Assembly (NCBI GenBank): GCA_965552055.1
Contig: CBEVQO010000002.1
Span: 256,001 to 320,000, forward strand
DNA: 64,000 bases
DNA from: an uncultured bacterium
GTDB taxonomy: Bacteria; Hydrothermota; UBA3073; NMUJ01; CBEVQO01
Direction of reading: 5' to 3'
Part shown: positions 33,561 to 55,786 of the stretch, in pieces
Numbering within the stretch: the first letter of the stretch is position 1
Layout: the number at the start of each line of letters is the position of its first letter
The notes under the pieces: generated by a model
The model's input: only the letters and a program-made list of their open reading frames with translations
Database searches by the model: none
What the model was told of the DNA's origin: nothing
Position numbers and translations under genes: made by a program

Positions 33561-33975
33561 AGTTAAAATAAAAATAAAAGTAGGAAATGAAGAAATAGAA
33601 ACAACGGCCCTTGCGAATTCTGGCTATGAAGCTTTTAAAAAACCCGAAATAATTTTGCCGGAGACACTCGCAAATAAACTTGGAATAAAGGAAGACAAAT
33701 TCAATTTCAAGAGAGTGCATTTTCAAGATATAAAAGGTGCATTTAATTCCCCTGTTTATCAAAACGCTGCTATTATTTGGCTAAATATTAATCCTGATAG
33801 AAAAGTAACTGTCGATGTAGTTGTTACAGATAGAGAAGAAGAAGTTTTATTGAGTGATAAACTAATAAGTGCACTCGGCATAGATATTGTAGATGCAGGC
33901 GAAGGTATCTGGAAATTAAGGGAAGACCCTCCTCATATTTTTAGAAAATCCGAAAGAAGACAGGTATGGAGTTAA
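33550..33975 (+). CDS. Clan AA aspartyl-protease-like protein (archaeal-type family, Asn at the catalytic Asp position)
   Basis: ETTALANSGYE..PEIILP..LA..LG; EVLLSD.LI.ALGI. Confidence 0.6.
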   Translation: MAVRVKIKIKVGNEEIETTALANSGYEAFKKPEIILPETLANKLGIKEDKFNFKRVHFQDIKGAFNSPVYQNAAIIWLNINPDRKVTVDVVVTDREEEVLLSDKLISALGIDIVDAGEGIWKLREDPPHIFRKSERRQVWS

Positions 33976-34512
33976 TTAAACTTTTTTGAGCTTGCCATCT
34001 ATCTCAAAATTGTTACCACCTAAATGATGTACTATTTTTACCTTATCAATATCCCAGTATTCTCCAAATACTCCTTCTTTTGCTTCTGCATGCACTATTT
34101 CTCCCACAAAAATCGTATATCTGCCGATATCAAAAGTATATTTCAATTTGCATTCTATAAAAGCAACGCATTCTCTTATCCATGGACATTTAACATTTTT
34201 GCCTTTCATCGGAGTTAATCTTGCCGCTTTAAATTTATCAACTTCACTACCAGATTTTGTACCGCATACCCATATTGCATTTAATAAACTTTCATCAGGA
34301 ATATTTATGGTAAATTCTTTTTCTTTCATTATTAAATCATGTGAATATCTTTCTTTTCTAACGCTTATTGCTACAAGTGGCGGACTACTGCATACAGGCG
34401 TCACCCATGCAATAGAAATTATATTGGGATAAGAAGGTCCATTAACGGTAACAAGAACACAGGGACCATTATTCACCAGTCTATAAGCATATTTCAAATC
34501 CACTTCTCTCAT
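33976..34512 (-). CDS. Flavin reductase family protein
   Basis: PCVLVT..NII.IAW..P.PPLVAISV..EFTINIP..CG..SG..VDKF; ATG at 34512 after SD GGGGGTGAG (ORF track starts at 34539). Confidence 0.9.
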   Translation of the reverse strand: MREVDLKYAYRLVNNGPCVLVTVNGPSYPNIISIAWVTPVCSSPPLVAISVRKERYSHDLIMKEKEFTINIPDESLLNAIWVCGTKSGSEVDKFKAARLTPMKGKNVKCPWIRECVAFIECKLKYTFDIGRYTIFVGEIVHAEAKEGVFGEYWDIDKVKIVHHLGGNNFEIDGKLKKV

Positions 34513-34520
34513 CTCACCCC

Positions 34521-35480
34521 CTATTTCATTATTTGCCATAGCCTTTTGAAATTCACATCTTTTATCCTTCGAATTAAACTCAATTTATCTTTCATACCCA
34601 TTGCAAGAATATACAGCAAAAATTTCTTTAAAATCGCGTTTTCAATACCTATGTTTTCCAGAATTAATCTTTCCCATATTATCATCCCTTCCGTTATTCC
34701 ATCACAATCTGTAAAATCTTTCAGCAAGTAAAAAGTATATTTCACGGGTTTTGCCGAAAAATATCTTTTTGTAAGTTTTTTGAATAAATTAAAATCAATT
34801 TTTACCTTCTGCATAAACATTATAATATCAAGTAGCCATTTCAAGCTTGCAAAACCTTCCTTCAACACATGGTTACATAAGTAAATCAGCTCCTGTTCCG
34901 GTTGCATAATGAAAAAATCTCCTTCTTTCTTTACATTTTCCCATATTTCATCGGGTTCTATCCTAAAAAACAATCTCTGAAAAGGACTTTTCTGGTTCAC
35001 AATATGCCAGTGTACTTCTATCATCACTTTTCCAAGAAAAGATTCATGGTTTCCTTCATTACTATAAAGTTTTCTGTATCCCATCTCTTTTAAAATTTTA
35101 ACAATTTCAGGATAGTCTTCTTTCTTTACAAGAACATCTACATCATTTAACTCTCTGGCACCAATATCTTTATAAACCGTCCTTAACATCCTTATACCTT
35201 TTAATGGAATGATTGGAATACCCTGCGCTCTTTGTATCAACCTATCAAATTCTGATAAAAACAAAACATTCCTGTAAACGGTTTGATTATAAAGTTTATG
35301 TATTTCTGCCAGTAAACTTTTATTTAATTTCTTGTCTATTTTATTTTCTGTAATTTTCGAATAGAGAAAAGGTAAAACATCAATCAAAAAGGGATTTTTT
35401 AACGCTTTTTCAATAAATTTCTCGAGTTCATGTAAATTTACTTCTGCAGGTCTTAAAAGAATTCCAAGGTATTTTCTCAT
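34521..35480 (-). CDS. Nucleotidyltransferase family protein (NTP_transf_5-like)
   Basis: PLKG...Y...R.LNDVDVLV...IEVHW...LIYLCNH...LKWLLDI. Confidence 0.87.
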   Translation of the reverse strand: MRKYLGILLRPAEVNLHELEKFIEKALKNPFLIDVLPFLYSKITENKIDKKLNKSLLAEIHKLYNQTVYRNVLFLSEFDRLIQRAQGIPIIPLKGIRMLRTVYKDIGARELNDVDVLVKKEDYPEIVKILKEMGYRKLYSNEGNHESFLGKVMIEVHWHIVNQKSPFQRLFFRIEPDEIWENVKKEGDFFIMQPEQELIYLCNHVLKEGFASLKWLLDIIMFMQKVKIDFNLFKKLTKRYFSAKPVKYTFYLLKDFTDCDGITEGMIIWERLILENIGIENAILKKFLLYILAMGMKDKLSLIRRIKDVNFKRLWQIMK

Positions 35481-36949
35481 TTTACTTTAACGATTTTTCT
35501 TACTTTAAATATTTTTCCGGTTTCAAGTGTTACAAAATACACGCCTGCTGGTAATTTTTCTGTTTTCCATTTTATAGTATAATAACCGGGTTCATATTGT
35601 TTTTTAGCGATAACTTCAATACATCTACCTGCTACATCGAAAATTCTTATTTTAACAAAAGATTTTTTTGGTATTGCGAATCTTATCATCATATAATTCT
35701 TAAATGGATTTGGGTAAACGGGATATAATGCGAACACTTTTGGTAGCAAATCCGGTTTATAAGTATCTGACTTTCCCTGCAAAGCATATATTTCTTTTTC
35801 GGTTATAAGAAAAACTTTTGCATCACACATTATGGGAGAAACTTTAACTTTTCCTTTTAGCTCTTCTTCATAAATTTTCTTTCCGGTTTCAATATCAAAT
35901 GCGAAGAATTTTCCTTGACTTGAGATACAGTAAATGATATTCCCCGAAATGATAGGAGAAACTGGCTTTTTTCCTGTGAATTCACCGAGTTTTTGGCACC
36001 ATTTTACTTTACCAGAAAACATGTTGATGCAATAAAGATATTCCCCTTTATATGCTGCTATTAAGACAACTTCATTGTTTCCGACTGCGATATTTGACAC
36101 TTTTAACTTTTCTGCCTTTAATGCACGCTTCAAAGGCGGTCCTACAAGGTATTCTGCCTGTGGCAACGGGATAAACTCTGTGGCTATTTCAATCTTCTCT
36201 CTTTGCCTCATTTTAATATCTTTAAGTAAATTATATTTCCATGCCAATCTACCATTATCTTTATTTACAGCGTAAAGATAGGGGTCAAAGCCACCGGGTG
36301 CGAAGAATACAAAATAACTCGCAGATGAAGGATTAAGAGACCTGAAAGCATTTTTAGTTGAAAATTCCCAGAGTTTTTCACCTGTTTCAATGGATATCGC
36401 ATAAATTTTACCATCATTTGAAGAAATATAAATCTTTTTATTTCTCACAACAGGCATTGAATGAATGAATTGCAAAGTGCTTATTTTCTTCTTCTCTCCT
36501 TTCTCTTCGATTATAAATTCTTTATAGGGTCTTCCTTTTGGATACAATAACTTTTCGCCATAGGGCAGTATTCCTCCCCTTGTTATACCAAGATTTTTCT
36601 TACAGATTGAAAATCTGCCTGTTTTTACATCGACCTTATAATAAATTCCCTTATCTGTTAAAAAATGACATTTTCCCTTTTTAATCGTTATAAACTCCGA
36701 AGGTCTTCCTTCCAGTTTTACCTTCCATCTAATTTTACCGTTCCATGTATTTATCGCAATCATTTTGCCTTCTTTCGTCCCGAACACAAGAATTCCCTCA
36801 TAGTAAACAGGATGTGTCACAATATCTGTCTCTGCTTTATATGTCCACAAATGTTTAAAAGGTGGTTTGATTCTTTCTCCTATATTTCTCGTAGCACTCA
36901 AATCGTATCCGGGATATAACCAATTTGTGAATAATATAAATAACAGCAT
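35477..36949 (-). CDS. PQQ-like beta-propeller protein with T9SS/FlgD-like C-terminal domain
   Basis: Repeated G.(I/L)YA...TG..LW blades; tail YPNPF...IFDVAGR...LPAGVYFV...RKIVKVK. Confidence 0.87.
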   Translation of the reverse strand: MLLFILFTNWLYPGYDLSATRNIGERIKPPFKHLWTYKAETDIVTHPVYYEGILVFGTKEGKMIAINTWNGKIRWKVKLEGRPSEFITIKKGKCHFLTDKGIYYKVDVKTGRFSICKKNLGITRGGILPYGEKLLYPKGRPYKEFIIEEKGEKKKISTLQFIHSMPVVRNKKIYISSNDGKIYAISIETGEKLWEFSTKNAFRSLNPSSASYFVFFAPGGFDPYLYAVNKDNGRLAWKYNLLKDIKMRQREKIEIATEFIPLPQAEYLVGPPLKRALKAEKLKVSNIAVGNNEVVLIAAYKGEYLYCINMFSGKVKWCQKLGEFTGKKPVSPIISGNIIYCISSQGKFFAFDIETGKKIYEEELKGKVKVSPIMCDAKVFLITEKEIYALQGKSDTYKPDLLPKVFALYPVYPNPFKNYMMIRFAIPKKSFVKIRIFDVAGRCIEVIAKKQYEPGYYTIKWKTEKLPAGVYFVTLETGKIFKVRKIVKVK

Positions 36950-36957
36950 TTCTCCTC

Positions 36958-37086
36958 CTAAGATTTATCTACCCCCAGATTACACTGCAAACCTGTTATA
37001 TCGCCTGCTGTCTGGCATTTATTACATTGTGCAACTGCATAAATTTTCTCTGATTTTACCTCCGGCTCTTTAAATTCTTTTTTCAT
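36958..37086 (-). CDS. Small Cys-containing RiPP-precursor-like peptide 2 (42 aa)
   Basis: SD AAGGAGGGG then MKKEFKEPEVKSEKIYAVAQCNKCQTAGDITGLQCNLGVDKS*; paralog of the adjacent peptide; below the ORF-track length cutoff. Confidence 0.85.
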   Translation of the reverse strand: MKKEFKEPEVKSEKIYAVAQCNKCQTAGDITGLQCNLGVDKS

Positions 37087-37097
37087 ATCCCCTCCTT

Positions 37098-37232
37098 TTA
37101 AGATTCCTTTGGCAAAATATTACAATCCAATCCCCCTATCTCTGCTATTGATACACATTTGCCACATGCCTGAGCTATTACATAGATTTTCTCACTTTTA
37201 CATTCGGGTTCATGCCATTCTTTCTTTTCCAT
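37098..37232 (-). CDS. Small Cys-containing RiPP-precursor-like peptide 1 (44 aa)
   Basis: SD AGGAGGTG then MEKKEWHEPECKSEKIYVIAQACGKCVSIAEIGGLDCNILPKES*; overlaps the last 55 nt of the giant gene. Confidence 0.85.
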   Translation of the reverse strand: MEKKEWHEPECKSEKIYVIAQACGKCVSIAEIGGLDCNILPKES

Positions 37233-40200
37233 TTTGCACCTCCTATTCCTATACGGAATATCTTACCGGATGTTGTAAATGTAATTACTCCTTGAGCGAC
37301 ATTTAGCATTGGAGTAGATTCTATTTTTTGTCCCGGGTCAAATTTCCATAATATTTTTCCTGTTTTTTCTGATACCGCTATTAATCCCTTTTCTGTACCG
37401 ATATAAATCTTTCCGTTGTACACCAGGGGTTTAGTTGTTGGCTTTGCACTAATGTTCAGAGGATATTGTGCCCAGCCCCAGGGATTTGGATTTCCATCAA
37501 TATCATAACAATAGATATTACCAAGTGTATCCGCAAAGTATATTTTACCCCACCAGTACCATGGTCCTTTTATAGCCGGAGCATTAAGTACATCCTGCCA
37601 AATTAAATCATAAGGCTGAGCTCTTAAACTATCGAGGCAATAAACATTTTTCTTAATGTTGCCAAAGTAAATCCTATAGTGGCTACCTGCCACTCTTCCA
37701 AATGCCGGTATATTAACGATATCTCCATCTGTTCCGTATTTTGCCTGCTCTACTCCTGTACCCGCACCGATTTTGTAAAGCGTATCGTCACATGAACCAC
37801 CATGCAGGAAACCGAATCCGTATCCCGGCATCGCTCTTATCGCGCCTCCTGTAGAGAAAGACCAGATAACACTGCCATCACCTCTATCAACTGCATAGAA
37901 ATTACCATCCTTTGCTCCAAAGTAAATTACACCACCATATTCAAATACACCGGAGATTATAGAATCACCAATATTCGTCCGCCATATCACATCACCATCT
38001 GTCCTGTTAACTGCATATAAAGTGCCAGCAGATGTGCCAAAGAACAAAGTATCACCTCTCACACAAATCAAATCACTTGCATAACCTCCATATTTTTTCT
38101 TCCATAAGAGATTACCCAAACTGTCGACAGCATACAATGTGCCGGATTTTGTAGAATAATAACTGGCACCATCAAATGCATGACCTATTCCTGAAGTTAC
38201 ATCTTTCCTGAATATCCTGATACCTGGATGTTGCCACTTTAGATCGATGTAAGCGGAATCTTTCCAAACTATTTGTGCACCATTAAGTTCTTCTTCATAC
38301 AATTCTCCTGAATGCTCTCCCATATAATTTTCACAGAAGATATAAATACCTGCACCATTCGCAGAAATATTTTTGTAACATGTAGTATCAAATAATAGAC
38401 CGCTGTAAGTATCGGAGTAAGCAGATGTTTTTATCACCCGCAAAGCTTTTGAAAGAGAGGACATATTCATAAACCATACATTTTCAAGAGTATCTATTTG
38501 TGATGTTGTATCGAGAATGAGACCCGATATTCCATCGCATAATAATCTGCTGATACTAACATTTCCTTTCAATCTTACTTCTGGATATTTTACACCCTGC
38601 TGTGTGGATGTTATTGAAGGCATTAAACCTTTTGCTATGAATTTGCCTTTTGCTATAAGATTTGCACCTACTTTTACTTCTGCCAGTGAGTCAATTATAA
38701 AAGCCGAATTTTGATCGATGGTAAGAACATTCTGCACTTTTAGAACAGATTTTCCTGAAAGGACGAAATCTGCATCCTGGAATTTGAGGTTATAGAAGTA
38801 ATTATTTTGTCCCTGTATTATTTTTACACTATCTTTTGCGATGACTATTTCTCCAGCTGAAGGCGTGAATGTTCCACCTGTATCTATCCAGTCACCCATT
38901 ACAATGTGAGTATAACTGCCAGGGTCAAATTCTCCCTTTAGAATCTTGAAATCACCGTAAATTGTTAGAGGACCTGTTGCAGTAACAGATGCTACCTGCT
39001 TTGTAGAATCTTTTTCTTCTTTCTTTGTAGAATAAGAATTTTCGATTATAAGATTATAAAACTTACTTTGCGATATTTGTTGCGGTTGATCACCGCAGAA
39101 AATGCAAGTCGAAGAATCAGGGATAAATTCACCGTTATTTATCCAGTCTCCTTTGATTCTTATAGTATCATCATTTGCCTTAAATACTCTTCCTGCATTT
39201 ATTTGTAAATCGTTAAGTATCACCAAATTATTCGTCAGTTTTATTGTATCTGCGTCTATTGTGAGGTTATAGAATGTATCTTCGGGTACATCCATTTTTG
39301 CCTGCAATATAACTGTGCCTGTTTGTGGCATAAACTTACCCTGATTAATCCATGAAGATGTCTTGAAAATAGCTCCTTCTCCTCCTTTGAATACTGCGCC
39401 TGTCCCAATATGGAAGCTATCTGTAACAGTGACCGTAACTCCTGCTGCAAGCGAAAGCGTATCGCCAGATATAACCAAGGACTTAAATGTTTCCGAATTC
39501 GTTATACAATTAGTTCCATCGAAAGTTACGACTCCTGCTGTCTGCTGGAATGTTCCGTTGTCAATCCATGTACCTGCGCAGAATATTGTAGATTTTGAAA
39601 TAAGATTTATTCCACCGCCTTTTTCTATCTTCACATTTCCATTGCAATCAAGATACATTCCGGGGACCGTCAAATTTACATTCGCTCCATTTTTCACAAA
39701 TATTGCAGCACATTGTGCAGTAGTGTTCACGGTTGGATCGAAAGGTGCATCCTGAATTATAACCTGATCTGTTGCAGTAGGCACTGTGCCATCCTGCCAG
39801 TTAGAAGGATTATCCCATCTATCATCAACTGTGCCTGTCCATACATCTGCAAGTATCCATTCTATTCTTGCGTACTGCGTAGTTGTATCATAAGCATCTC
39901 CTGCCTTATCTCCGGAATATGCTACCATGGTTACAATCGCAGAATCAGGGGAAGTGCATTTTAAATGGAAATTATACTGACATGAAGCATCATAAGAGTG
40001 CCCACTAAATGTAGCCGTATATCCTGCATTTCTGTAAATCTGTAAGAATGTTCCACCTGACTCGATATTTGTGAAATTAATGCCATCGAGTGCAGCAATC
40101 TGAGCATCTTCCCATATCCTCAATCCTCTCTTACAAACTCTATTTACATTCAATGCAGTTACATCTATCTCTCCTCTTACTTCAAATCCAAAGTAAGACA

Positions 40201-43200
40201 AATTATTTATACTCGTTATAGTTGGTGTTACTCCATTTGCACTGAATTTTCCGCCATTTTCGATAAACAATGTATCTGCTACTTTAAGTGTACAACTGCC
40301 ACTAAGCTGTAAGAGACCTCCGGAATTCACAATTATGTAAGAGTTAGCACTGACAACAGAGCTATTGAGTGTTAAAATACTATCAACAATTATCGAATCT
40401 CTAATAGTGTGTCTTCTATTCACGAAATCAAATTTCCCTTTCTTAATCCACAATTTTCCATCTATTTGAGTGCCTGTCTTTGTAACAACCTGTGTTCCTG
40501 AATCTATTATCACATCATAGAAATTATTTGTCGATTTCTGATATATTTCCTGATTTTCTCCGCAAAGTATAATTTCACCTGCTGATGGCGTAAATGTACC
40601 GAGAGTATCATTCCAGTTACCCTTCACATAGTGCGTGTAAGTACCTGGCACAAATTCTCCTGCTTCTATTACAAAATCTCCATATATCCTTAGTGAACTC
40701 TGTGCTGTCACTGTTCCGGTTGATTTCACAATCACACTATAGAAATTATTCTGGGTCAATTGTGTAATATTTTGGGATGTTCCTGCAAATATTATCTTTC
40801 CTCCCGTTGGTCTAAATGTGCATCCTGTTTCTATCCAATCACCTTTTACCGTATGAGTAAATGTATCTGGGACAAATATACCCGATGCAAGCTCTATATC
40901 TCCATAAATCCGTAATTTAGATAGTGCTTTTAAAGTATCTGTTTTTTCAATCTTTATATCGTAGAAATTATTCCCATTGCCCAATTTGACTGTAGATTTG
41001 CTTCCCAAGAAGATAACCTTACCCGATGTAGGTGCAAATGTACCTGATACTGTATTCCAATCACCGTAAATCCTGTGAGTATAACTGCCAGGTATAAACT
41101 CTCCTGATAAAAGTGTTAAATCTCCTTTAATTACTAAACTATCAAGTGCGGTTACAGATGCAGTTGGCGCCATACTCAAATTATAAAGATAATTTCCTGT
41201 GCCTAATTTTATCTGCTGCGCACCTCCTGCAAGATAAACAGTACCATCATCTGCTTTGAATTCGCCTCCTGAAGCATCAAAATCACCCCGTACTTCAAGG
41301 ACATTATCGGACGGTATAAAGACTCCCGATTTTACAGTAAAATCATTTTTTACAAAGATATCTGTCTTCTGCCATATTGTATCGCCATCGATCTCAAGAT
41401 TTATGAAATAGTTACTTGCTTTTTGCCATATTTCACCTTTTCCTGTTAAGACTATTTTTCCGCCAACCGGATTGAATGTCCCTCCCGTATCCACCCAATC
41501 ACCACCAATATAATGCGTAAAACTACCTGCAATAAATTTACCTTTATTTATTACAAAATCACCATGCACATGTAAAGAATCAAAAGCTTCCACACTTGTA
41601 AGGCAATTTATCTCGACATTATTAAAGTAGTTTGTCTGACTTGAGGTGATTTTCTGATAATTTCCTGTAAACTTTATTTTTCCTCCTGTTTGATGAAATG
41701 TTCCCAATACATCACTCCAATCGCCTTTAACTTCATGGGTAAAGGTATCTGGATTGAATGTACCTGTTATCGTTATATCCCCATAGATCTTCAGCGGTGT
41801 TTTTGCAGTTACAGTACCTGCTATTTTAATATTTGCAAAGTTATTATCTTGTGCCTGCCATATTTCTGAATTACCGGTAAATCTTATTTCACCACTTGTA
41901 GCTGTAAATGTTCCTCCTGTATCTATCCAGTTTCCTTCAACATAATGGATATAACTTGCTGGTGAAAATTCGCCTTTCAGCAACACAAAATCGCCTTTTA
42001 TATTAATCGGTGACTGACATAGCACTTTTCCCGAATTCTTATTAATCGTTAAATTATAGAAGTAACTTTGCGGTGTTAGATTTATTACCTGCTGGTAATC
42101 TCCACAGAATATTATTTCACCTGAATCTGCATAGAGTGTTCCATTTACTATTAAATCTCCTTTTAAATACAGTTTAAATGTATCACAATGTAAATAAGCG
42201 CTATCGTCTATTCTAAGGGACATGCAATATGCATTCGTATCGAGGTATGGGAATCTAACAGCAGTATCTGGTATTACGACATCTTCTGTATCCGTAGGCA
42301 CTCCTGGTGGCGACCAGTTATTGGGATTGCTCCATAAACTATCAACATCTCCCTGCCATACTCTCTGCGCAATCCAGTAAATGTGAGCTTTATTAACCTC
42401 TTCATCATAACTCTCACCTGCTTTTGCACCCGAATAATTTACCATATAAATCACTGTAGAATCTCCACCACCATCTGCATAAACATTCACACTGCAAGAT
42501 GCATCAAAATAACAACCTGTGAAGTTTTGAATAAATAGACCTTTCCTGTAAATTTGCAGATGTTTCCCTTTATTACCCACTTTCTCAAAACTCACATTAT
42601 TCAAACTAATTATTTCTGCAAGTGTGTCAATATAGAATCCATCACTATCCGCATATGAGAATTTCAATCTTTCACAATTTAATTTTCCTGAAAATCTAAA
42701 TGAAAAGCGATTCAATGTATCGAGTGCAGTTATTTGCGGTGTCAAACCTGTAAACTCACAATAAGAACCTTCCTGCGCCTTAAATGTTTCTCCTACTTTC
42801 AAAATAGATGCTCCCTGCATTATTAAAGTATCATTAATCACAATATATTTTCCTCTCAATTCTCCGCCTGTCATCTTTAAATTGCCGGAAATTATCACAC
42901 TATCTTCAACTGTATGTACTCCTGTTTGTATATCAAGTTCTCCTGTGAGTAACTTTAATTTTGAATTTATTTTAAGACCGGTTAATGGAGTAACTTTTTG
43001 AGAGTTTAATGTCAGGTTGTAGAAATTGTTTTGCGAAGATGTGATAATTTCTATGGTATCACCTTCAAATTTTATCTCACCTGCTGTTGGATTAAATTTA
43101 CCATTTTGGTCGTTCCAATTACCTTCGATTATATGAGTAAATGCCCCGGGTTCAAATCTTCCACCGCTTATTGTGATATCGCCCTTCACTCTAATAGGCG

Positions 43201-49200: not shown

Positions 49201-52200
49201 TATTTACTTTTATATTTGTCTCAAGATTAACTACACTTCCGGTATTTATGGTGAGATTTGCGAAATTGTTATTTGCACCCTGTTTTATGTATATGGTATC
49301 TGCATCATCAAGCACTATCTCACCCTGTGATGGTTTAAATGTACACAATGCATCATCCCAGTTGCCACAAATGTAATGAGTGTAAGCACCCGGAATTATT
49401 ACACCATTTTGCATTATAAATTCAGAGTTTACATCGATAGATGACGCAAATTCAACTGTATCCTGAGCATTTTGTAACGCAATTTTTAGCTTATAGAAAT
49501 TATTCCCTGTTCCTTGCTTTATTTGTTGTTTGCCTGTTCCACATATCACTATCATTCCGGAATCCGGTGTAAACACTCCTCCTGCATCATCCCAATTACC
49601 CTTCACATAATGAGTAAAGTTACCGGGATTAAATTCTCCTTGCCTCAATTTAAAATCTGTAACCGTGATTGATGTCTTCGCATAAAGAACACCTCCTGTC
49701 TTATCAACAATTAATTTATTGAATGTTATTGCATTCCCTTTTATCTCTTGATTTCCTGTGCCATTAAAAATCACTATTCCAGAACCTGCATCAAAACTTC
49801 CATTGTTCATGAAATCACCACCAACATATAATGTACAATTAAGTGCTCTTAATGTCTTTGTTGATAATATCTTCAAATCATTCTTCACCACAAGCTTCGT
49901 ATAAGGTATCTTCGCATTAGCACCTATTGTGAGATTGTAAAATACTTCATTTGGCACTATTGTATCCCTAACGATAACTTCACCTGTTTGGCAATCAAAT
50001 GTTCCACCTGAATTGTTCCAACCTTTTACATCAAATACTGCGTTGTTTCCTCCATAAAATGTAGCTCCTGACAATAAGTTAAAACTATTTGTTACTTTTA
50101 CTGTTTCGCCATCTGCGATACCAACACCTGCTCCTGTGATTTTTATATTTAAAAATGTAGTACTCCATATCTTTGCGTTGGCACCATAAAATTCAACTAA
50201 ACCGCTTCGCTGATCAAATACTCCTCCCATATTTTTCCAGTTGCCTCCTACTCTTATCACACTATTCGAATCTTGCACAATCTTCGCACCGGATTTTAAT
50301 TCAACATCTCCTGATACATTCAAAGTACATACAGTATCTACATATAGCATTGTTGAAGAAAGTAAAAGTATTGATGCACATTCTGCGTGCAAAGTGTCAA
50401 CATGTGGATATACAGACCTTTGAGGTATTAGGACTTTATCGTTGAGTTTAGGAATATCGTCCGGTGGATCCCAGTTATGCGCTTTGCTCCATCTCCAGTG
50501 AGTACCTGCTGGCCAGGGGGCACCCGTACCTCCAACCCACACTTTACCCATTGTCCACAAAACAGCACCTCCATTTGTCTCCTCATCATACGCTTCTCCA
50601 GCTCCACTACCAGCATAATAGAAAACTTTTAACTTTGCTACAGTATCCGTAGTGGATACACCACCATCTATGTGAATATTAACATCACCTGCATAAACGG
50701 TATCATAATAGTGGTCATAAATAGTTTTATCAAAAGTACCACTTCTATAAATTTGCAGAAATCTATCGGTACCTGCTGTGCGCTGTAAACTATCAAATCG
50801 AACACTCGAAAGATCTGTCAATGTTGCTGCTGGATAAATGTATAAACCATTTGAATTTAAGTATCTGAAAATTGCACCTTCAACATCAATTTCACCTTTT
50901 ACTCCAAAGCCATAATATTGTCCTGAATTTCGATGTGTTATCAATGGCTGAGCATTTCCTACGCTTCTCGTTACAAATTTACCTGTTGATGCAACTTCTA
51001 TCCCTTTTACCAGCTGTAACTGTGCTGCTCCTTCCATTTTCATTAAACCTGCAACTATCACAGTATCCGCTGCTATGCCTCCGCCAGAATTTTTCATCAC
51101 CACACCACCTGATTGTCCTATTTCCATTTTGCCCGTTAGTAAACCTTTTGAATTGAGTATTAAAACACCCGATTTTACTTTTGTACTGTCAAGAACCATC
51201 AAATTACTTTGTGCCTTTACTGTATCACTTTCTATCACAAGTAGATACAAAGTATCTGTCCCAATGTCTATATTCTGTACCTCTCCGTTCAAAATAATTT
51301 TACTATTTTTCACAAGAAGCTTTCCATCTGCTGATTTAAAATCACCTTTTATTCTGTGAGTAAAGTTACCTCCATCGAATACACCTTGCTGATAGATCCA
51401 AAACATTCCATGAATATTCAGAGAATCTTGCGCTTTTATAGTATCGGATGTGCTTATTCCAAAGTTATAGAAGTAATTGCCTGTCCCAAGGTAAATATTT
51501 GATTTTCCGGGAAAACCAATCCAACCTGAAGTCGCATGGAAAATACCTCCTCTACTATCCCAATCTCCATAAACTTTCATTACTGTTTGAGGCGGAATAA
51601 ACTCACCTTGTGTTATAACAAAGTTACCTTTCACAATTATTCCTGTGTTTGCTTTCTTCGAATAAGCAGTATTTATCTCAAGATTATAAAAGGCATTCTT
51701 GGTTGTATCCTGATAAATAGAGTCAGCATATCCATCAAGTACTATTTTGCCAGAAGAAGGATTGAATACACCTCCCAAATCCCACCATGTACCGCCTATA
51801 TAGTGAGTATAAGAATCAGGATAAAATACGCCCGAAAGTATCTTAAAGTAACCATCAACATTTAATGAAGATTGAGCTTTTAATGAATCTTCTACTTCTA
51901 CCTTCACATTGTAAAAGTTATTTCCACTACCTGTTTTAACATCTTGTTTTATCCCTGTGAAATGCACGATCCCTGATGTCGGCGTAAATGTACCACCGGT
52001 ATCCACCCAGTCACCTTTTATCTCTATGTAGCTACCGGGTACAAAACTGCCTGATGAAAGAGTAAAGTCACCAAAAATTTTCAAAGGAGTAAGCGCCTGA
52101 CAATTTGAAGATATCTTCAGGTTATAAAAGTTATTCTTTGAAGTGTCTTGATATATTACCTGAATTCCTGTTCCATTAAATACGATTTCTCCAGACGATG

Positions 52201-55200
52201 GTGCAAACTTACCCTGCCTATCATCCCAATTTCCTTCTATGTAATGTGTGTAAGACTGAGGAATAAATTCTCCACCCAAAATTGTAAAATCACCTGTGAT
52301 CTTTAAAGAAGTTTGTGCTACTACACAATTTGTAACATTTATTTCAACATCAGCAAATTGATTATTCGCACCTTGCCATACATTTGAAGAATCACCATCA
52401 AATACAAACTTGCCAGAAGTTAATAATCTTCCTCCAGTATCATCGTAATCACCACCTACTCTATGTGTATAACTTCCGGCATCGTAACATCCTCCTTGTA
52501 TCTCAAAGTTTCCTTTCACAGTAATATCCGAAAGCGCCCATACTGTATCTGACACATTTATAACAAGATTGTTGAAGTAATCTCCTGTTAATAGTGTTAT
52601 CCTTTGTGTATCTCCATCGAAGATAAAAGTACCTGCATCTGCCCTAAACACTCCACTTATATTTTCAAAGTCGCCAGCTATTGTATGAGTAAAAGATTGG
52701 GGGTCAAATTCACCTTCCCTTATTCTTAACTTACCATCTATATCGAGCGAAGAATAGGCAACAACTTTCCCTGCTAGTTTATAAATATCAAGGTCATAAA
52801 TTGAACTGCTATCCGTTATCTTTATAGATTGATTATATTCACCTCTGAAACATAATTTACCTGTCCCGGGAATCAGCTTACCGTTATCTTCAAAATTACC
52901 AAAGATGTAAAGAACATTTGACTTCAATTTTAACTTTGCACCTGGATTTATCTTTACACTAAAAGCATATCCTGCAACATCAAGCACAGGGTCTCTTATA
53001 GTATCTGGTATTACTACATCTGAAGATTCATCTGGTACTCCTGCTGGCTTCCAGTTATTGGGATTACTCCACAAAGAGTCAACCGCTCCTGTCCAGCGTT
53101 TCTGTATGAGCCATTTTATCTCCGCACCATTTGTCTCTTCATCGTAAGCCTCTCCTGCTTTAGGACCGCTATACCCCGACACAAAAATTTTAACATTACC
53201 ACCTGCACCATCAGCATGGATATTTGTATCACATGTAGCATCAAAATATAAACCTATTAAAGTAACATTGTAAGTCCCTTGCCTATAAATATGCAAATGA
53301 GTGCTCGGATTACCACCAGGTTCAACATTCTCAAAAATAACATTGGAAATATTTTGTATAACTGCTGGCGTATCTATTACCATTCCTTCACTATTAGCAT
53401 AACTGAAATAAAGTTTTGTAATGTTTACAGTTCCCCTTATTTTAAATGAATAGTAAGTTGATGGAGATATGGATGTAACTGTAGGCGCTGCTCCCTCCGA
53501 GATAAACGAACCTGTTTCTCTTATAAGTACTCCTTTTGCTAACCTTAAAATAGAACTACCATAAAGATGCAAAACTCCATCACTCACAAGATTGCCTACC
53601 ACCACTAGATCACTACCTGATACATTAAGCTCACCCGATTGACCAATATAGACGCTATCTTTTAAAGTATCGTAGTAACCTGTTGAAAGATCAAATTCTC
53701 CTGAAACAACTTTTAGTAAACTATCCACTATTAATTTGCTGCTCATTAAAGCTGTACCTGTCACATTTATCGTTAACCTATTAAATTTATTACCCGAACC
53801 AAGATTAATTTGAGGAGATGTGCCTGCAAATACTATTTCGCCAGCTGAAGGAGAAAATGCACCCCCTGATACATCGAAATCTCCTTTTATTGTGTCAACA
53901 TAATTTCCAGGGTCGAAGCTTCCACCGTTTATTATCTTAAAATCGCCAAAAATTCTAAGACTCGTATTTGCTACTGCGTTTCCTCCATCAATTGTTAAAG
54001 AATAGAAATTATTTGTAGATGATGTTGTTATCTGAGGATTTGCTCCGGTTAAAATTATTTCTCCTGCTGTCGGTGTAAACTCAACTTGCGTATCATCCCA
54101 ATTCCCACTTATCCTGTGAGTATATGAACCTGGGTCAAATTTCCCACTTTCAAGATAAAGTGCACCATTCACAGTTATATTACTTAATGCTGTGACAGTA
54201 TTTGTGGGTCTTAAGATTAAATCATTAAAATAGTTGCCCGCACCCTGTGTAATTTGCTGGTTAACTCCACAGAAAACAATGCCTCCTTGAGATGCTTTGA
54301 AAATACCGCCCGCATCAGACCAATCTCCTTTTACAGTATCTCTGTAAGGCGAGGGTATAAATGTTGCATTATTTTGAATTGAAAAATCACCATAAATTGC
54401 AATACAACTTTCAGCTTCTACTGTATCTGCAACAATCCATAAGTTATAAAAATGATTTTGCGGTGAAGTGTAAATATATGTATGTGTGTTTCCACCAAGT
54501 TCAACACGCCCTGCATTTGGCTTAAATTCTCCATTTGTAACATCAAAATTACCTTTCACTTTCAATACATATGATTGTGGGTCAAAATAGGCATTTTCCA
54601 ATGTAAAATCACCATCAATAGTGAGATCGGACAACATTCGAATTGTATCACCCGAAAGCACCTCAAAGTCATAAAAACTATTTGTTGATAACTGTGTTAC
54701 TTTAAACAAAGAATTTGTTGTTGAAATACTTATTTTACCTTGACCATGCTGGAAAGTGCCTGCTTCTTCTAACCACTCTGTTCCCGAAAGATTTATTGTA
54801 TTGCCATTTTGATTGTAAGTGCCATTCTTCAAAACGAATTTTCCTTGAACCGTTATTGAAGTAACCTGGATAACAGTACCTGTTGCATTTATCACAAGAT
54901 CATTTAAATAAGATGTAGCACCTGTAACTTGTAAAGTCTCTACGCTACTTCCTGCAAATATCACACAACCTGTTCCACAATCAAAGTTCACTACCTTAAA
55001 ATCGCCTTTTACTGTCAAAGTCTCATCCTCTGCTCGACAGATACCAGTAGAAGTAACTACAAAATCATTTTCACAGGTTATATCTGTCTTCAAAGTACAC
55101 TCACCTGCTATTTCAAGGTTATAATAGGTCTCATCGGGTACGCCCATATCACCGGCAAGGACGACCGTACCCGTGCCATAATTGAATACACCATTATTTT

Positions 55201-55753
55201 CCCATTTTTTACATATTATCAACCTCGTATCGTTACCTGCATTTAAAATACCCGAAGATATTATCTTTAAACTGTCAGTCTTCGCACTATCTCCATCGTT
55301 AATTGAAATTTCGCCCGAGATTAAAATATTTTTGAATCTTCCCTCATTATGAATGACCGCTCCTTCTTCAAATTCTATGGTGCCATCAATTTGCCGTAAA
55401 GTTCCTTCATCGATCCAATGTCCTCCCACGGAGATAGTATAATTAGAGTTTAATCTTAAAATACCATTTGAACGAATTATTACATCGTGTTCAACTGACA
55501 GATTTTTATCAACGGTAAGCGATTCATCTTCAATTATGAGCCAACCGCATTCAGCGTCGTCCGAAAAAATGCGCGGACAACTGCGACCCGATGCTAAACT
55601 TGGAATCTTAACACTATCCGCAGTGGTAGGCACTCCTTTAGGTATCCAGTTACTCGCTCTATGCCAGTCAGAATCAGTGGAACCATTCCAAGTTCTAAGT
55701 ACCCCATAGAGGGGTAACGAAAAAAGAAAAATTATCACAGAAAATTTTTTCAT
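37178..55753 (-). CDS. Giant secreted repetitive protein (6191 aa): seven beta-solenoid-like super-modules plus C-terminal PQQ-like beta-propeller
   Basis: Uninterrupted ORF; signal peptide MKKFSVIIFLFSLPLYG; 7x W.G...W..P.NW...P start motif and 7x Y.G..(A/G/S)G(E/D).Y(D/E)...W end motif; C-terminal G.LYA...G...W blades. Confidence 0.92.
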   Translation of the reverse strand: MKKFSVIIFLFSLPLYGVLRTWNGSTDSDWHRASNWIPKGVPTTADSVKIPSLASGRSCPRIFSDDAECGWLIIEDESLTVDKNLSVEHDVIIRSNGILRLNSNYTISVGGHWIDEGTLRQIDGTIEFEEGAVIHNEGRFKNILISGEISINDGDSAKTDSLKIISSGILNAGNDTRLIICKKWENNGVFNYGTGTVVLAGDMGVPDETYYNLEIAGECTLKTDITCENDFVVTSTGICRAEDETLTVKGDFKVVNFDCGTGCVIFAGSSVETLQVTGATSYLNDLVINATGTVIQVTSITVQGKFVLKNGTYNQNGNTINLSGTEWLEEAGTFQHGQGKISISTTNSLFKVTQLSTNSFYDFEVLSGDTIRMLSDLTIDGDFTLENAYFDPQSYVLKVKGNFDVTNGEFKPNAGRVELGGNTHTYIYTSPQNHFYNLWIVADTVEAESCIAIYGDFSIQNNATFIPSPYRDTVKGDWSDAGGIFKASQGGIVFCGVNQQITQGAGNYFNDLILRPTNTVTALSNITVNGALYLESGKFDPGSYTHRISGNWDDTQVEFTPTAGEIILTGANPQITTSSTNNFYSLTIDGGNAVANTSLRIFGDFKIINGGSFDPGNYVDTIKGDFDVSGGAFSPSAGEIVFAGTSPQINLGSGNKFNRLTINVTGTALMSSKLIVDSLLKVVSGEFDLSTGYYDTLKDSVYIGQSGELNVSGSDLVVVGNLVSDGVLHLYGSSILRLAKGVLIRETGSFISEGAAPTVTSISPSTYYSFKIRGTVNITKLYFSYANSEGMVIDTPAVIQNISNVIFENVEPGGNPSTHLHIYRQGTYNVTLIGLYFDATCDTNIHADGAGGNVKIFVSGYSGPKAGEAYDEETNGAEIKWLIQKRWTGAVDSLWSNPNNWKPAGVPDESSDVVIPDTIRDPVLDVAGYAFSVKINPGAKLKLKSNVLYIFGNFEDNGKLIPGTGKLCFRGEYNQSIKITDSSSIYDLDIYKLAGKVVAYSSLDIDGKLRIREGEFDPQSFTHTIAGDFENISGVFRADAGTFIFDGDTQRITLLTGDYFNNLVINVSDTVWALSDITVKGNFEIQGGCYDAGSYTHRVGGDYDDTGGRLLTSGKFVFDGDSSNVWQGANNQFADVEINVTNCVVAQTSLKITGDFTILGGEFIPQSYTHYIEGNWDDRQGKFAPSSGEIVFNGTGIQVIYQDTSKNNFYNLKISSNCQALTPLKIFGDFTLSSGSFVPGSYIEIKGDWVDTGGTFTPTSGIVHFTGIKQDVKTGSGNNFYNVKVEVEDSLKAQSSLNVDGYFKILSGVFYPDSYTHYIGGTWWDLGGVFNPSSGKIVLDGYADSIYQDTTKNAFYNLEINTAYSKKANTGIIVKGNFVITQGEFIPPQTVMKVYGDWDSRGGIFHATSGWIGFPGKSNIYLGTGNYFYNFGISTSDTIKAQDSLNIHGMFWIYQQGVFDGGNFTHRIKGDFKSADGKLLVKNSKIILNGEVQNIDIGTDTLYLLVIESDTVKAQSNLMVLDSTKVKSGVLILNSKGLLTGKMEIGQSGGVVMKNSGGGIAADTVIVAGLMKMEGAAQLQLVKGIEVASTGKFVTRSVGNAQPLITHRNSGQYYGFGVKGEIDVEGAIFRYLNSNGLYIYPAATLTDLSSVRFDSLQRTAGTDRFLQIYRSGTFDKTIYDHYYDTVYAGDVNIHIDGGVSTTDTVAKLKVFYYAGSGAGEAYDEETNGGAVLWTMGKVWVGGTGAPWPAGTHWRWSKAHNWDPPDDIPKLNDKVLIPQRSVYPHVDTLHAECASILLLSSTMLYVDTVCTLNVSGDVELKSGAKIVQDSNSVIRVGGNWKNMGGVFDQRSGLVEFYGANAKIWSTTFLNIKITGAGVGIADGETVKVTNSFNLLSGATFYGGNNAVFDVKGWNNSGGTFDCQTGEVIVRDTIVPNEVFYNLTIGANAKIPYTKLVVKNDLKILSTKTLRALNCTLYVGGDFMNNGSFDAGSGIVIFNGTGNQEIKGNAITFNKLIVDKTGGVLYAKTSITVTDFKLRQGEFNPGNFTHYVKGNWDDAGGVFTPDSGMIVICGTGKQQIKQGTGNNFYKLKIALQNAQDTVEFASSIDVNSEFIMQNGVIIPGAYTHYICGNWDDALCTFKPSQGEIVLDDADTIYIKQGANNNFANLTINTGSVVNLETNIKVNNFTLQSGYLKDAVACTLWVDGDWIEAGGNTDFDAATVILQGSTKDLQLNTGSKLWNLVIDVGSTDTVEFKSQIDVNGDFVMKSGVILPGAYTHYIASDWVDTLCEFVQTEGGVVLDGISPVIYQKEGNKFNNLTINVSGVATAKTKLLIGGDFTLQQGTFSIEDTVICGGNWSDAGGTFTDLTGTVKLIGENATINQGATNHFNNLIIEGTGRIETQTNITVKGNLRIISGTFYLGDALTHTVDGKVIAEDSLHLGQSELKVSDSLIIKETGVLYMENQCVLTLGKAALIDGKFEAFGTTPKIQNDGINYYSFKVRGEIEVLRLVFSGADVNGMYIDTSATIIDLSNVSFQSVQPGGNPSRHLQIHRNADFEKEFLGCSFDASCDTNVYANGYGNSVRLIFSDYSGPKGGEDYDEEVNGAEIIWMIKKVWTGAQDTLWSNPFNWDPVGLPADTEDVVIPGGLTNYPVLDMDDTIASLNIETGARFKEGPGGSYTLVIKGNMHNMGRFDAGDGTIEFTGLANQIALGDSGEFYNLVINKQTGSITAGGPIIIKNNITLKSGEFIPGVYTHIVGGGWYEINGTFRPTSGKILFNGQNAVIKQKEGNYFHNIEIDVDNNLTLQTDVVVKGDVKITSGQLILDTFELQVEGNWDSETGVIQDLTGTVIFAGNKQQINVSANDYFNNLVIQANDTVTALDSIKIMGDFKILQGVYYAQSYTHRIGGDFYAIGGYFKQDAGKVIFIDSSQIYTDDEIFNDFVCEGTAIAKSNLQINGDVEIKGKFIPGDYTHTVNGNWIDTLGEFKAQEGEIILSGVNKGIYQGTGNNFYNLTISGNITAYTSINVDGDITITGTFNPGSFTHRVAGDWDDEGGIFNQISGTIIFDGVTQQINTKAGNYFNNVICEVTNKLIAADSLDINGDFVILSGEFVPNAYTHRIGGNWADTGGIFIDTTSTIIFDGTKQKIYAKIGNHFNNVKINPSDTVWAMTALKTEGYFAILSGTFIPGNFTHEIGGDWYDKGGVFKPTGGTIILNGENPHIYTSATNNFYNLTIDVTGVATAEDGLNINGALLINAGELYLSDGLTHKVASGVNVYGTLDLGTSVLEVGTGLNVQSGGVLKLIGSPALKLGTQLYIANGGKIFTSGSPEITAKDTTKPFDFNVYGELEIDGLTISYIDTGGLCIYNQAQITRLDEVKFTNQRGTGHRVYMQIYRNADFNATFSLHSYDQYCDTNVYADGGGNNVDIIMSGASGSKAGENYDHEVNGANIEWTSADVWVGGTNSSWWDAVAAGLPASHNAKNWSLGRPPVDTELVIIPANANNNYPILNITDTCAGVLIKSGAKLTMNSDKILHVQGDFTIKGQFDLSDGTLFVWNDFTNDGVFNHTGGWVVIESTGVISGKCTFYNLKFADNSNVSVNYGDTLKITNNFIIGTNADFHGGTNTLIQVYSWNNSGKFHYEQSTVEFLADMTLPQDTFYNLVINAIDSLNAELICMNDLHIKQTLKGKGYTIYVGGDWINDGNFIHGGSDVVFNGGSDQYVKGGLSAFDKIIINSTGGELIAQDGLTIEGDFMIYKGGFEPSSYTHYVKGDWVDTGGIFRPSAGKIVFNGAVQHILTDADNYFYEMEINADSVYFDSPIDVNGALYMLSGVIEPWGYVHEIAGDWVDTAVIFTQDSGKIILDGNKFKIIQGSNNNFANLEIRASDTVFAQSALKIYGDFMLSSGIFEAGSYTHTVRGDWIDTGGVFTAEEGKILFDGKEGEIWQGANNYFANIEIKVQDTLSAKTNITLKGDFVLNSGVFDAPSLIKVGADWIDTGGVVVFPANADVWFTGSVSNVLQDTVKNRFQNFTIKTSNTYLKSSIICEGNLTIESGSLNPGSYTHIVYGNFTSQGVFTADSGKFVFRGDASAQVELANGNYFNTIIIEKNLSQLTASSALTLKGDFILKKGTFYAGSYTHTVEGNWIDTGGVFQPTDGKIVLTGRTSKIYQGENNYFANLDITPNLTDTIIAETPIRVKGDITISGGRFEPGAFTHIIEGNWNDQNGKFNPTAGEIKFEGDTIEIITSSQNNFYNLTLNSQKVTPLTGLKINSKLKLLTGELDIQTGVHTVEDSVIISGNLKMTGGELRGKYIVINDTLIMQGASILKVGETFKAQEGSYCEFTGLTPQITALDTLNRFSFRFSGKLNCERLKFSYADSDGFYIDTLAEIISLNNVSFEKVGNKGKHLQIYRKGLFIQNFTGCYFDASCSVNVYADGGGDSTVIYMVNYSGAKAGESYDEEVNKAHIYWIAQRVWQGDVDSLWSNPNNWSPPGVPTDTEDVVIPDTAVRFPYLDTNAYCMSLRIDDSAYLHCDTFKLYLKGDLIVNGTLYADSGEIIFCGDYQQVINLTPQSYFYNLTINKNSGKVLCQSPINIKGDFVLLKGEFSPASYIHYVEGNWIDTGGTFTATSGEIRFTGNSEIWQAQDNNFANIKIAGTVTAKTPLKIYGDITITGTFNPDTFTHEVKGDWSDVLGTFHQTGGKIKFTGNYQKITSSQTNYFNNVEINCLTSVEAFDSLHVHGDFVINKGKFIAGSFTHYIGGDWVDTGGTFNPVGGKIVLTGKGEIWQKASNYFINLEIDGDTIWQKTDIFVKNDFTVKSGVFIPSDNVLEVRGDFDASGGEFKADDGTVYLAGGAQQIKLGTGNYLYNLSMAPTASVTALDSLVIKGDLTLLSGEFIPGSYTHRIYGDWNTVSGTFAPTSGKVIFLGSKSTVKLGNGNNFYDIKIEKTDTLKALSKLRIYGDIELASGIFVPDTFTHTVKGDWIETGCTFRPTGGKIIFAGTSQNITQLTQNNFYSVIVKSTGTVTAQSSLRIYGDFVIEAGEFVPGTYTHYVKGNWNDTLGTFTPSAGEIILCGENQEIYQKSTNNFYDVIIDSGTQVVTKTGTQIDGKLWIKKGKFDFVNRRHTIRDSIIVDSILTLNSSVVSANSYIIVNSGGLLQLSGSCTLKVADTLFIENGGKFSANGVTPTITSINNLSYFGFEVRGEIDVTALNVNRVCKRGLRIWEDAQIAALDGINFTNIESGGTFLQIYRNAGYTATFSGHSYDASCQYNFHLKCTSPDSAIVTMVAYSGDKAGDAYDTTTQYARIEWILADVWTGTVDDRWDNPSNWQDGTVPTATDQVIIQDAPFDPTVNTTAQCAAIFVKNGANVNLTVPGMYLDCNGNVKIEKGGGINLISKSTIFCAGTWIDNGTFQQTAGVVTFDGTNCITNSETFKSLVISGDTLSLAAGVTVTVTDSFHIGTGAVFKGGEGAIFKTSSWINQGKFMPQTGTVILQAKMDVPEDTFYNLTIDADTIKLTNNLVILNDLQINAGRVFKANDDTIRIKGDWINNGEFIPDSSTCIFCGDQPQQISQSKFYNLIIENSYSTKKEEKDSTKQVASVTATGPLTIYGDFKILKGEFDPGSYTHIVMGDWIDTGGTFTPSAGEIVIAKDSVKIIQGQNNYFYNLKFQDADFVLSGKSVLKVQNVLTIDQNSAFIIDSLAEVKVGANLIAKGKFIAKGLMPSITSTQQGVKYPEVRLKGNVSISRLLCDGISGLILDTTSQIDTLENVWFMNMSSLSKALRVIKTSAYSDTYSGLLFDTTCYKNISANGAGIYIFCENYMGEHSGELYEEELNGAQIVWKDSAYIDLKWQHPGIRIFRKDVTSGIGHAFDGASYYSTKSGTLYAVDSLGNLLWKKKYGGYASDLICVRGDTLFFGTSAGTLYAVNRTDGDVIWRTNIGDSIISGVFEYGGVIYFGAKDGNFYAVDRGDGSVIWSFSTGGAIRAMPGYGFGFLHGGSCDDTLYKIGAGTGVEQAKYGTDGDIVNIPAFGRVAGSHYRIYFGNIKKNVYCLDSLRAQPYDLIWQDVLNAPAIKGPWYWWGKIYFADTLGNIYCYDIDGNPNPWGWAQYPLNISAKPTTKPLVYNGKIYIGTEKGLIAVSEKTGKILWKFDPGQKIESTPMLNVAQGVITFTTSGKIFRIGIGGAKWKRKNGMNPNVKVRKSM

Positions 55754-55759
55754 TTTTTA

Positions 55760-55786
55760 ATTATAAACCGCTTTCGGGAGTGTCAA
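55760..55786 (-). promoter_or_regulatory. Promoter TTGACA-N15-TATAAT of the giant-protein operon, probably leaderless
   Basis: Perfect boxes; 6 nt to the ATG; no SD. Confidence 0.78.

Follow-up and report, generated by a model that had tools for sequence, protein, structure and literature searches.

A giant secreted protein, precursor peptides and a pair of beta-propellers form a gene set conserved across two phyla of uncultured bacteria

Introduction

Why a giant secreted protein, two small peptides, a second propeller protein, a nucleotidyltransferase and a flavin reductase share one run of co-oriented genes is the question raised by a locus in the 64,000-nucleotide stretch of DNA analysed here, hereafter called the window. 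The sequence-only reading of this locus proposed that RiPP-like peptides and the nucleotidyltransferase are linked to the assembly or modification of a giant surface structure. Comparable enzymes are known from other peptide pathways. According to the available part of PMC13381572, the linear polyphosphorylated peptides (LPP) of Bacillota are cut after an FET triplet by an SpI-like peptidase with the help of an RRE, an HprK kinase phosphorylates a Ser, and the function of the peptide clusters with kinase and NTP-transferase genes found in capsule loci is described as unknown. In the pseudomycoidin pathway, the kinase acts on the last Ser and an NTP transferase is needed for the hexose on the phosphate (PMC6993621, available part). 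Thioether links have been reported on a Cys-rich protein (PMC13692751, available part).

Gene organization of the window

Six open reading frames on the minus strand were verified at 33976-55753 in the ORF listing of the window, and their features are as follows.

55760..55786, minus strand: promoter-like TTGACA-15 nt-TATAAT, read from the sequence, ending 6 nt before the ATG of the giant gene
37178..55753, minus strand: giant secreted protein, 6191 aa (ORF, Pfam, repeat analysis)
37235..38263, minus strand: tail-less PQQ-type beta-propeller at the C-terminus of the giant (Pfam PQQ_2, structure model, tree)
37098..37232, minus strand: precursor peptide 1, 44 aa (WxxP leader, EKIY, CxKC-x10-C, last Ser)
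36958..37086, minus strand: precursor peptide 2, 42 aa (FxxP leader, EKIY, CxKC-x10-C, last Ser)
35477..36949, minus strand: partner protein, 490 aa, with a tailed-type PQQ propeller (Pfam PQQ_2 and Por_Secre_tail, TIGR04183, tree)
34521..35480, minus strand: NTP_transf_5 nucleotidyltransferase, 319 aa (Pfam; LKG and DxD motifs intact)
33976..34539, minus strand: flavin reductase-like protein, 187 aa (Pfam; likely start at 34512), a passenger

The junctions from the giant gene to the reductase gene measure -55, +11, +8, -4 and -19 nt. The sequence-only reading had described six co-oriented genes with gaps or overlaps of at most 11 nt. The six genes are real, but the giant gene and peptide 1 overlap by 55 nt, the start of the peptide falling within the last 55 nt of the giant gene, and the last junction is -19 nt, or +8 nt when counted from the second ATG of the reductase, which has the better ribosome-binding site (RBS). 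A promoter had also been placed at 55760-55786. The -35 and -10 boxes are present there, but the spacer of 15 nt is shorter than canonical, and the site is unlisted by a promoter scan with spacers of 16-18 nt. The giant gene has no RBS before its ATG, and the promoter-like site would give a leaderless transcript. The 5' end of the transcript is not fixed because a co-oriented DUF212 gene lies only 66 nt upstream. Within 33500-38500, promoter-like sites (17 against 19.8 expected) and terminator-like sites (1 against 2.6 expected) occur at chance level.

No RRE, radical SAM, kinase or peptidase family was found among the six genes by Pfam and NCBIfam searches, as had been claimed. The reductase (Flavin_Reduct, E 4.4e-34, Pfam) does not keep the place in the set that it had been given, because no such gene occurs in any of 20 downstream Elusimicrobiota regions or near the 80 listed peptide loci, the same-class genome G018 or the metagenome locus L089 described below; it is a co-oriented passenger and no conserved member of the set.

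The surroundings of the six genes hold further features. Two DUF3857/DUF3858 genes stand in tandem at window positions 57066-60727, upstream of the giant and co-oriented with it; one of them encodes a transglutaminase-like core, and they are followed by a GT2 gene and then by the DUF212 gene. At the other end, a pair of small plus-strand genes lies at 33237-33975; the second weakly resembles clan AA aspartic proteases, and the stop of the pair abuts the reductase stop with no terminator between them.

The giant protein and its C-terminal propeller

The giant has a signal-peptide-like start and no hydrophobic anchor, and it consists of seven super-modules, within each of which repeats lie about 74 aa apart. 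Seven tail motifs and six head motifs of the super-modules were located by pattern and one more head motif by eye, and alignment gives 24-35% identity between the super-modules and the last one. The repeat may adopt a beta-helix-like fold, and a sequence search found no solved structural relative of the super-module. At the end of the protein, PQQ_2 matches with an E-value of 3.9e-18 (Pfam), profile matches lead to solved propellers, and the last 343 residues are predicted to form an eight-bladed propeller, with a mean pLDDT of 89.4 and a strand pattern repeated eight times in the model, in keeping with four-stranded blades of about 40 aa. [quoted passage not shown]

The motif D-(S/T)-(A/I/L/V/M/T), which we take to be the Bacteroidota O-glycosylation sequon, occurs 87 times in the giant (37178-55753) against about 25 expected; its enrichment is 4.2-fold in roughly picked tail-bearing proteins of the genome and 2.0-fold in other long frames. 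A short basic extension after the propeller ends the giants of the window's lineage (window 37178-37232; L089:9178-9233; the long ORF of L090). This extension overlaps the start of peptide 1 in the window and in L089, and Elusimicrobiota giants stop at the propeller. Elsewhere in the window's genome, two secreted proteins of 1817 and 1478 aa (G000:C1:130809-136262 and G000:C3:94305-98741; L063 and L064) end in a tail-less propeller of the giant type. Their N-terminal parts are unrelated, neither adjoins a peptide or partner gene, and the C3 gene adjoins starch-use and ABC-transport genes.

The tailed partner and the nucleotidyltransferase

The 490-aa partner matches PQQ_2 (E 1.7e-25) and Por_Secre_tail (E 8e-13) in Pfam, and its T9SS type A-like tail comprises residues 411-487, with TIGR04183 above cut-off. 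The hydrophobic start at its N-terminus is short, and the protein shows both marks of a T9SS type A cargo, a signal-like start at the N-terminus and a sorting domain at the C-terminus. The sequence-only reading was right that the giant lacks a T9SS-like tail and the downstream protein has one, Por_Secre_tail being found only in the 490-aa protein, and that both carry PQQ-like propellers, PQQ_2 being found in each. PorV, the one part of the T9SS machinery searched for, has three matches in the window's genome, two of them above cut-off.

A narrow single-protein search with the tailed propeller matched two proteins. A 494-aa tailed-propeller paralogue lies in the window's genome between two Wzc-like genes and a Wzy-like gene (G000:C4:93651-102162; L066). 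The genes that flank it are the genome's best matches to the Wzc and Wzy genes of Elusimicrobiota, and this locus is probably a remnant of an ancestral cluster.

NTP_transf_5 was detected in the 319-aa protein with an E-value of 5.3e-44 (Pfam). That this nucleotidyltransferase belongs with the set is borne out in relatives, since its gene comes directly after that of the tailed propeller in G018 and is present no more than 12 kb from it in 12 of 20 Elusimicrobiota regions, and it is a candidate tailoring enzyme for the predicted phosphorylated last Ser of the peptides. A single-protein search of genome contigs with this narrow query gave no match. The NTP_transf_5 family occurs in 76 of 272 genomes of the window's phylum, and at nine loci (L033, L034, L036-L039, L041, L043 and L045) it adjoins short leader-bearing ORFs of other types, lasso-like and others.

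Precursor peptides and maturases encoded in trans

The window peptides are 57% identical to each other, and each has an RBS, three Cys residues and a last Ser. Their reading as RiPP-type precursors is supported, and they match a G018 precursor that lies within a maturase cassette. The maturases missing from the window had been supposed to act in trans, and a genome-wide search located candidates on two other contigs. The sole PqqD of the genome directly follows an HprK-like gene on contig C7, and on contig C6 a radical SAM/SPASM enzyme (C6:50613-51617; Radical_SAM and SPASM above cut-off, CxxxCxxC and auxiliary-cluster Cys present) precedes an S26 peptidase gene. The four enzymes of the set, the nucleotidyltransferase among them, all keep their catalytic motifs. 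In G018, which belongs to the same class as the window's genome, PqqD, HprK-like, radical SAM and S26 genes form one cassette around a 56-aa precursor, and their best matches in the window's genome, searched in this one direction, are the C7 and C6 loci. The radical SAM enzyme of G018 is 40% identical to the C6 enzyme (E 1e-83; next best 2e-32); other SPASM matches in the genome were rejected as the maturase for their far lower scores against the G018 enzyme. Among 45,332 frames of the window's genome, the G018 precursor matches only two, and these are the window peptides.

A profile built from the two window peptides gave five weak matches in the 272 genomes, in longer frames or with a stop, which were treated as chance, and it missed the G018 precursor. 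The three-peptide profile matched 23 proteins among 1.84 billion, of which 21 are short peptides, 18 of these 21 ending in Ser; the other two, long repeat proteins, were dropped. No peptide fusion was found, the long co-members of the clusters (an S41 peptidase and a TonB receptor) being unrelated. No NCBIfam family fits the 21 peptides, and no Pfam family covers them either. A DNA pattern drawn from these 21 peptides led to at least 80 loci in species genomes, mostly of Elusimicrobiota and also of Armatimonadota and Firestonebacteria. The last Ser is present in 79 and the third Cys in all 80 of the 80 listed precursors, and neither was required by the search pattern. YxxP occurs in 77 and FET in 66 of them; core position 3 is Leu in 79 and Pro in one, and it is Ala and Cys in the window peptides.

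Within 10 kb of the 80 listed peptide loci, PqqD was found at 67, a radical SAM enzyme at 64, an HprK-like kinase at 59 and an S26 peptidase at 17 or more. The transferase and the propeller were each found at only two, because the giant gene intervenes: among 45 loci for which 8 kb or more of downstream sequence is available, 36 have a co-oriented ORF of at least 1000 aa after the peptide, versus 4 of 54 upstream.

Related cassettes were also seen. Those at L013 (G015) and L014 (G010) have different precursors with two or three Cys, ending in Ser, and lie beside Wzc/Wzy genes; they contain up to three SPASM enzymes, an S26-transferase fusion in G015 and a TPR-fused peptide-arginase-like gene in G010. 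In a Methanobacterium record (L182), genes for an S26 peptidase, a nucleotidyltransferase and PqqD lie near a matching peptide that has three Cys and ends in Ser, which suggests an archaeal version of the system.

Conservation of gene order and co-occurrence

The sequence-only reading was to be given up if the gene order proved not to be conserved in other genomes; the order giant, peptides, tailed propeller recurs in L089 and in Elusimicrobiota. Metagenome searches returned 46 loci, of which two are near-copies of the window's genome, L089 and L090 are true relatives and L130 and L133 probable ones; the remaining loci were rejected as generic propellers. L089 reads giant, peptide, peptide, tailed propeller. 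Its giant is colinear with that of the window and 47% identical to it over 3072 aa, and neither a nucleotidyltransferase nor a flavin reductase follows its tailed propeller. On a contig separate from its cassette, G018 repeats the window's order: a protein that ends in a tail-less propeller comes first, then a tailed propeller and then a nucleotidyltransferase, with no peptides between them.

Peptide loci were extended in nine genomes. In seven of these (G272-G276, G278 and G281), the giant measures 2866-9460 aa and has a tail-less propeller at its end, and the next gene encodes a protein that combines an N-terminal propeller with a secretion-type tail; the G277 locus breaks at a contig end, and the Armatimonadota genome G279 differs in layout. 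The Elusimicrobiota cluster comprises maturases, peptide, giant, tailed propeller and a PorV-like gene, often with a nucleotidyltransferase, an ABC-2 pair and Wza/Wzc/Wzy genes. In G274, the peptide adjoins the giant and no maturase was detected within 10 kb.

Among 251 Elusimicrobiota genomes, the tailed-propeller profile matched 39 and the peptide profile 42. By hand count, 35 genomes have both, four the propeller only, seven the peptide only and 205 neither, and in 15 cases the peptide and the tailed propeller share a contig and a strand, separated by 10-39 kb. Thirty tailed-propeller loci were fetched, of which three lay at contig edges. In all 27 readable loci, 21 of them outside the training alignments, the gene upstream stops 0-1 residues past the end of a giant-type propeller. 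The 12 kb downstream of the tailed propeller in 20 further Elusimicrobiota regions hold a PorV-like gene in 20, an ABC-2 pair in 15, a nucleotidyltransferase in 12, Wza and Wzc in six each, Wzy in five and a flavin reductase in none. The label PorV-like rests on three query proteins, of which one passed the PorV cut-off, one matched UPF0164 and one matched nothing.

A quick tree was computed from 63 rows, made up of 20 of the 32 tail-less propellers, 18 of the 30 tailed ones and 25 others. Every tail-less row falls into one group (SH-aLRT 99), and every tailed row, along with two rows from L130, into another (99). Both groups span the window's phylum and Elusimicrobiota, and the tailed protein of the window sits on a long branch. 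The passengers themselves are not related to one another, being repeat modules in the window, FN3-type domains in G278 and a beta-helix in G018. The matching divergence of the paired propellers (rho 0.84) was discarded as a sign of binding because shared descent explains it; co-inherited neighbours would give matching trees without contact.

Gene content, order and co-occurrence are thus conserved across two phyla. The window's genome also has two more tail-less members, an ABC-2 pair, PorV-like genes and the tailed paralogue beside Wzc/Wzy; the system is complete there but scattered, split over at least five loci.

Two further layouts were observed. L130 and L133 have a 1232-aa protein ending in a divergent propeller, encoded on the opposite strand between two tailed-type propellers, and probably represent a third lineage with the system. 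The Armatimonadota genome G279 has four precursor genes at four places (L143, L189, L231 and L232), with no maturases near the two loci scored. Two of its peptides directly precede secreted proteins with propeller-like C-terminal parts, one of 915 aa with a weak profile match and one of 1590 aa recognized by eye.

Comparison with known systems

As in LPP clusters, a discrete RRE, an SpI-like (S26) peptidase, an HprK-like kinase and an NTP transferase are present, on three contigs in the window's genome, and the YxxP leader, the FET before the cut site and the link to capsule loci are shared as well. However, the 80 listed relatives have no Ser at core position 3 and a conserved last Ser instead; a SPASM enzyme lies within 10 kb in 64 of the 80 listed loci and three Cys are invariant, whereas the LPP product is linear; no MsbA-like transporter is present in the window, and relatives carry an ABC-2 pair (15 of 20); and the peptide is tied here to a giant and a propeller pair. 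The terms 'radical SAM', 'propeller' and 'surface' do not occur in the main text of the LPP paper (PMC13381572). The paeninodin and pseudomycoidin pathways share a PqqD-type RRE, and an HprK-like kinase and NTP transferase with a C-terminal Ser (PMC6993621, available part), but neither the six window genes nor the G018 cassette includes a macrolactam cyclase or B2 peptidase, and the core is Cys-rich here. Judged from its genes, the predicted peptide chemistry resembles the LPP and paeninodin-type pathways and falls outside both as they are defined.

SynChlorMet and GeoRSP (TIGR04248-04251, TIGR04302-04303) likewise combine PqqD, a SPASM enzyme and a kinase-like gene, but all the scores lie far below the cut-offs (ScmD 41.6 against 100, ScmE 134.7 against 400, GeoRSP radical SAM 138.6 against 400), ScmC has no match, and there is one radical SAM enzyme instead of two. 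Sactipeptide and ranthipeptide systems resemble the present one in having a SPASM enzyme with a Cys-containing peptide; neither they nor quinohemoprotein amine dehydrogenase are known to include a kinase, a transferase, an S26 peptidase, a giant passenger or genes for polysaccharide export.

On the secretion side, a large surface protein beside a dedicated partner recalls T9SS type B cargo with its PorP-like partner (PMC9143113 and PMC12618676, available parts). The partner here is a soluble tailed propeller, not a barrel; its type A-like tail, and the PorV-like gene adjoining it in relatives, recall type A cargo with PorV. Unlike T9SS cargo, the giant has neither tail, and its constant C-terminal element is a PQQ-type propeller. 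Atlas clusters related to the propellers are generic PQQ/BamB ones only.

The apparatus as a whole matches no described system, and its enzymes fall below all the named cut-offs. In the literature searched, mainly open with a few subscription journals, we found no description of the gene set, nor of a surface-tethering role for a modified peptide. A preprint on giant genes (10.1101/2023.11.21.568195) reports very large genes in Elusimicrobiota; its available part mentions neither PQQ nor such a cassette.

A tentative model and its alternatives

With a probability of about 0.42, the window is the cargo-and-peptide part of a conserved surface system, in which the propeller pair carries and holds the giant and the modified peptides tether it to polysaccharide. 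The parts of this reading differ in strength. It is highly probable that the giant, peptides, partner and transferase are functionally one, and the peptides of the set, which recurs in two or more phyla of uncultured bacteria, are likely to be modified by enzymes; the specific tethering mechanism is tentative.

By analogy with LPP and lasso biochemistry, PqqD would bind the [WFY]xxP leader, and the S26 peptidase would cut after an aromatic-x-x triplet, FET in most relatives and YVI and YAV in the window, to leave predicted cores of 25 and 24 residues. On the same grounds, the HprK-like kinase may phosphorylate the last Ser, and the nucleotidyltransferase may add or activate a sugar on its phosphate. 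Family knowledge suggests that thioether links at the three invariant Cys are the work of the SPASM enzyme and that the ABC-2 pair exports the product. From gene pairing alone, the tailed propeller may be a pilot or dock for tail-less giants, which would then be handed to a PorV-like shuttle. Most speculatively, the peptide would be attached through its phospho-sugar end to the Wzc/Wzy polymer, and a propeller would grip the cyclised core.

Export and anchoring by the propeller pair are proposed because one kind of terminal propeller is kept by passengers that are otherwise unrelated, because the tailed partner always comes next, and because a PorV-like gene also follows the tailed partner in Elusimicrobiota. 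Tethering to polysaccharide, the weakest step, is proposed because the peptides stay with the giant when the maturases leave, and because the transferase sits between the partner and the export genes. The model in its full form, in which a thioether-cyclised, phospho-glycosylated peptide joined to the capsule polymer is a staple gripped by the propeller pair, and any giant with the tail-less propeller at its end is piloted out by the tailed partner and pinned to the cell, is doubtful.

Several findings run counter to the cargo-and-peptide reading. The counts overstate independence, because the genomes are related and several were reached through the peptide scan. Each propeller type occurs in two of 272 genomes of the window's phylum, with five to seven candidates scored per genome. 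The window's genome has three tail-less and two tailed members, two of its tail-less genes adjoin neither partner nor peptide, and the G018 tailed propeller is nearer to the C4 paralogue than to the window's copy. Polysaccharide genes lie within 12 kb in only six of 20 regions, L089 has no adjoining nucleotidyltransferase, and two of the four peptides of G279 have no adjoining propeller gene.

The strongest alternative, which we consider unlikely, is that the propeller pair alone is a secretion and anchoring device, and that the peptide is diffusible and acts as a signal or weapon, sharing only its regulation with the genes for surface and capsule. Capsule loci are also where LPP and paeninodin clusters are found, no propeller being mentioned in the available part of PMC13381572; G018 keeps its peptide and maturases on a different contig from the propeller pair, and in the stretches of G010 and G015 that were read, comparable cassettes adjoin Wzc/Wzy and no such propeller is present. 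A diffusible product accounts less well for the window, L089 and G274, where peptides stay against the giant or between the propeller genes with the maturases gone, and for the tight coupling between the presence of the peptide and that of the tailed propeller.

It is improbable that both propellers bind the peptide and not each other, so that envelope-displayed peptides retain tail-less giants exported by another route. Two peptides do lie between two propeller genes in the window and L089, and in G279 two peptides precede propeller-like proteins with no tailed partner seen. Elusimicrobiota, however, have one peptide per genome versus two propellers, and the adjacency of giant and tailed propeller (27 of 27), with PorV-like genes following (20 of 20), is better explained by joint export.

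The PQQ-type fold, PqqD and the SPASM enzyme are parts of cofactor pathways and a flavin reductase adjoins, so that the peptide might serve a propeller enzyme as its cofactor or as a small subunit, in the manner of PQQ or of the gamma subunit of quinohemoprotein amine dehydrogenase, which is thioether-linked and packs against the propeller subunit. Cofactors of this kind are formed from Glu and Tyr (PQQ) or Trp and Cys (CTQ). The conserved core positions lack the residues of known cofactors, both propellers, of about 350 aa, score far higher against non-catalytic eight-bladed proteins than against dehydrogenases, and the flavin reductase is not conserved; this reading is very improbable. A chance assembly of unrelated neighbours is practically negligible: the flavin reductase is such a neighbour, and the genome has dozens of tailed proteins and several generic propellers, but the order conserved in L089, G018 and Elusimicrobiota refutes chance for five of the six genes.

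Implications

Across two phyla, the peptide cassette is tied to a propeller pair and a giant, which gives the peptide a concrete and testable job. The findings also point to the C-terminal propeller as a sorting element that can be carried by different proteins, of up to 9,500 residues and with no secretion tail of a known type, in lineages from which hardly any members have been cultured. Because the domains are small, they can be expressed, so that binding and chemistry can be tested without the host. If the peptide is indeed a staple, the C-terminal propeller would represent a new sorting domain, the peptide would serve as a structural anchor, and this would explain the place of kinase/transferase peptide clusters in capsule loci.
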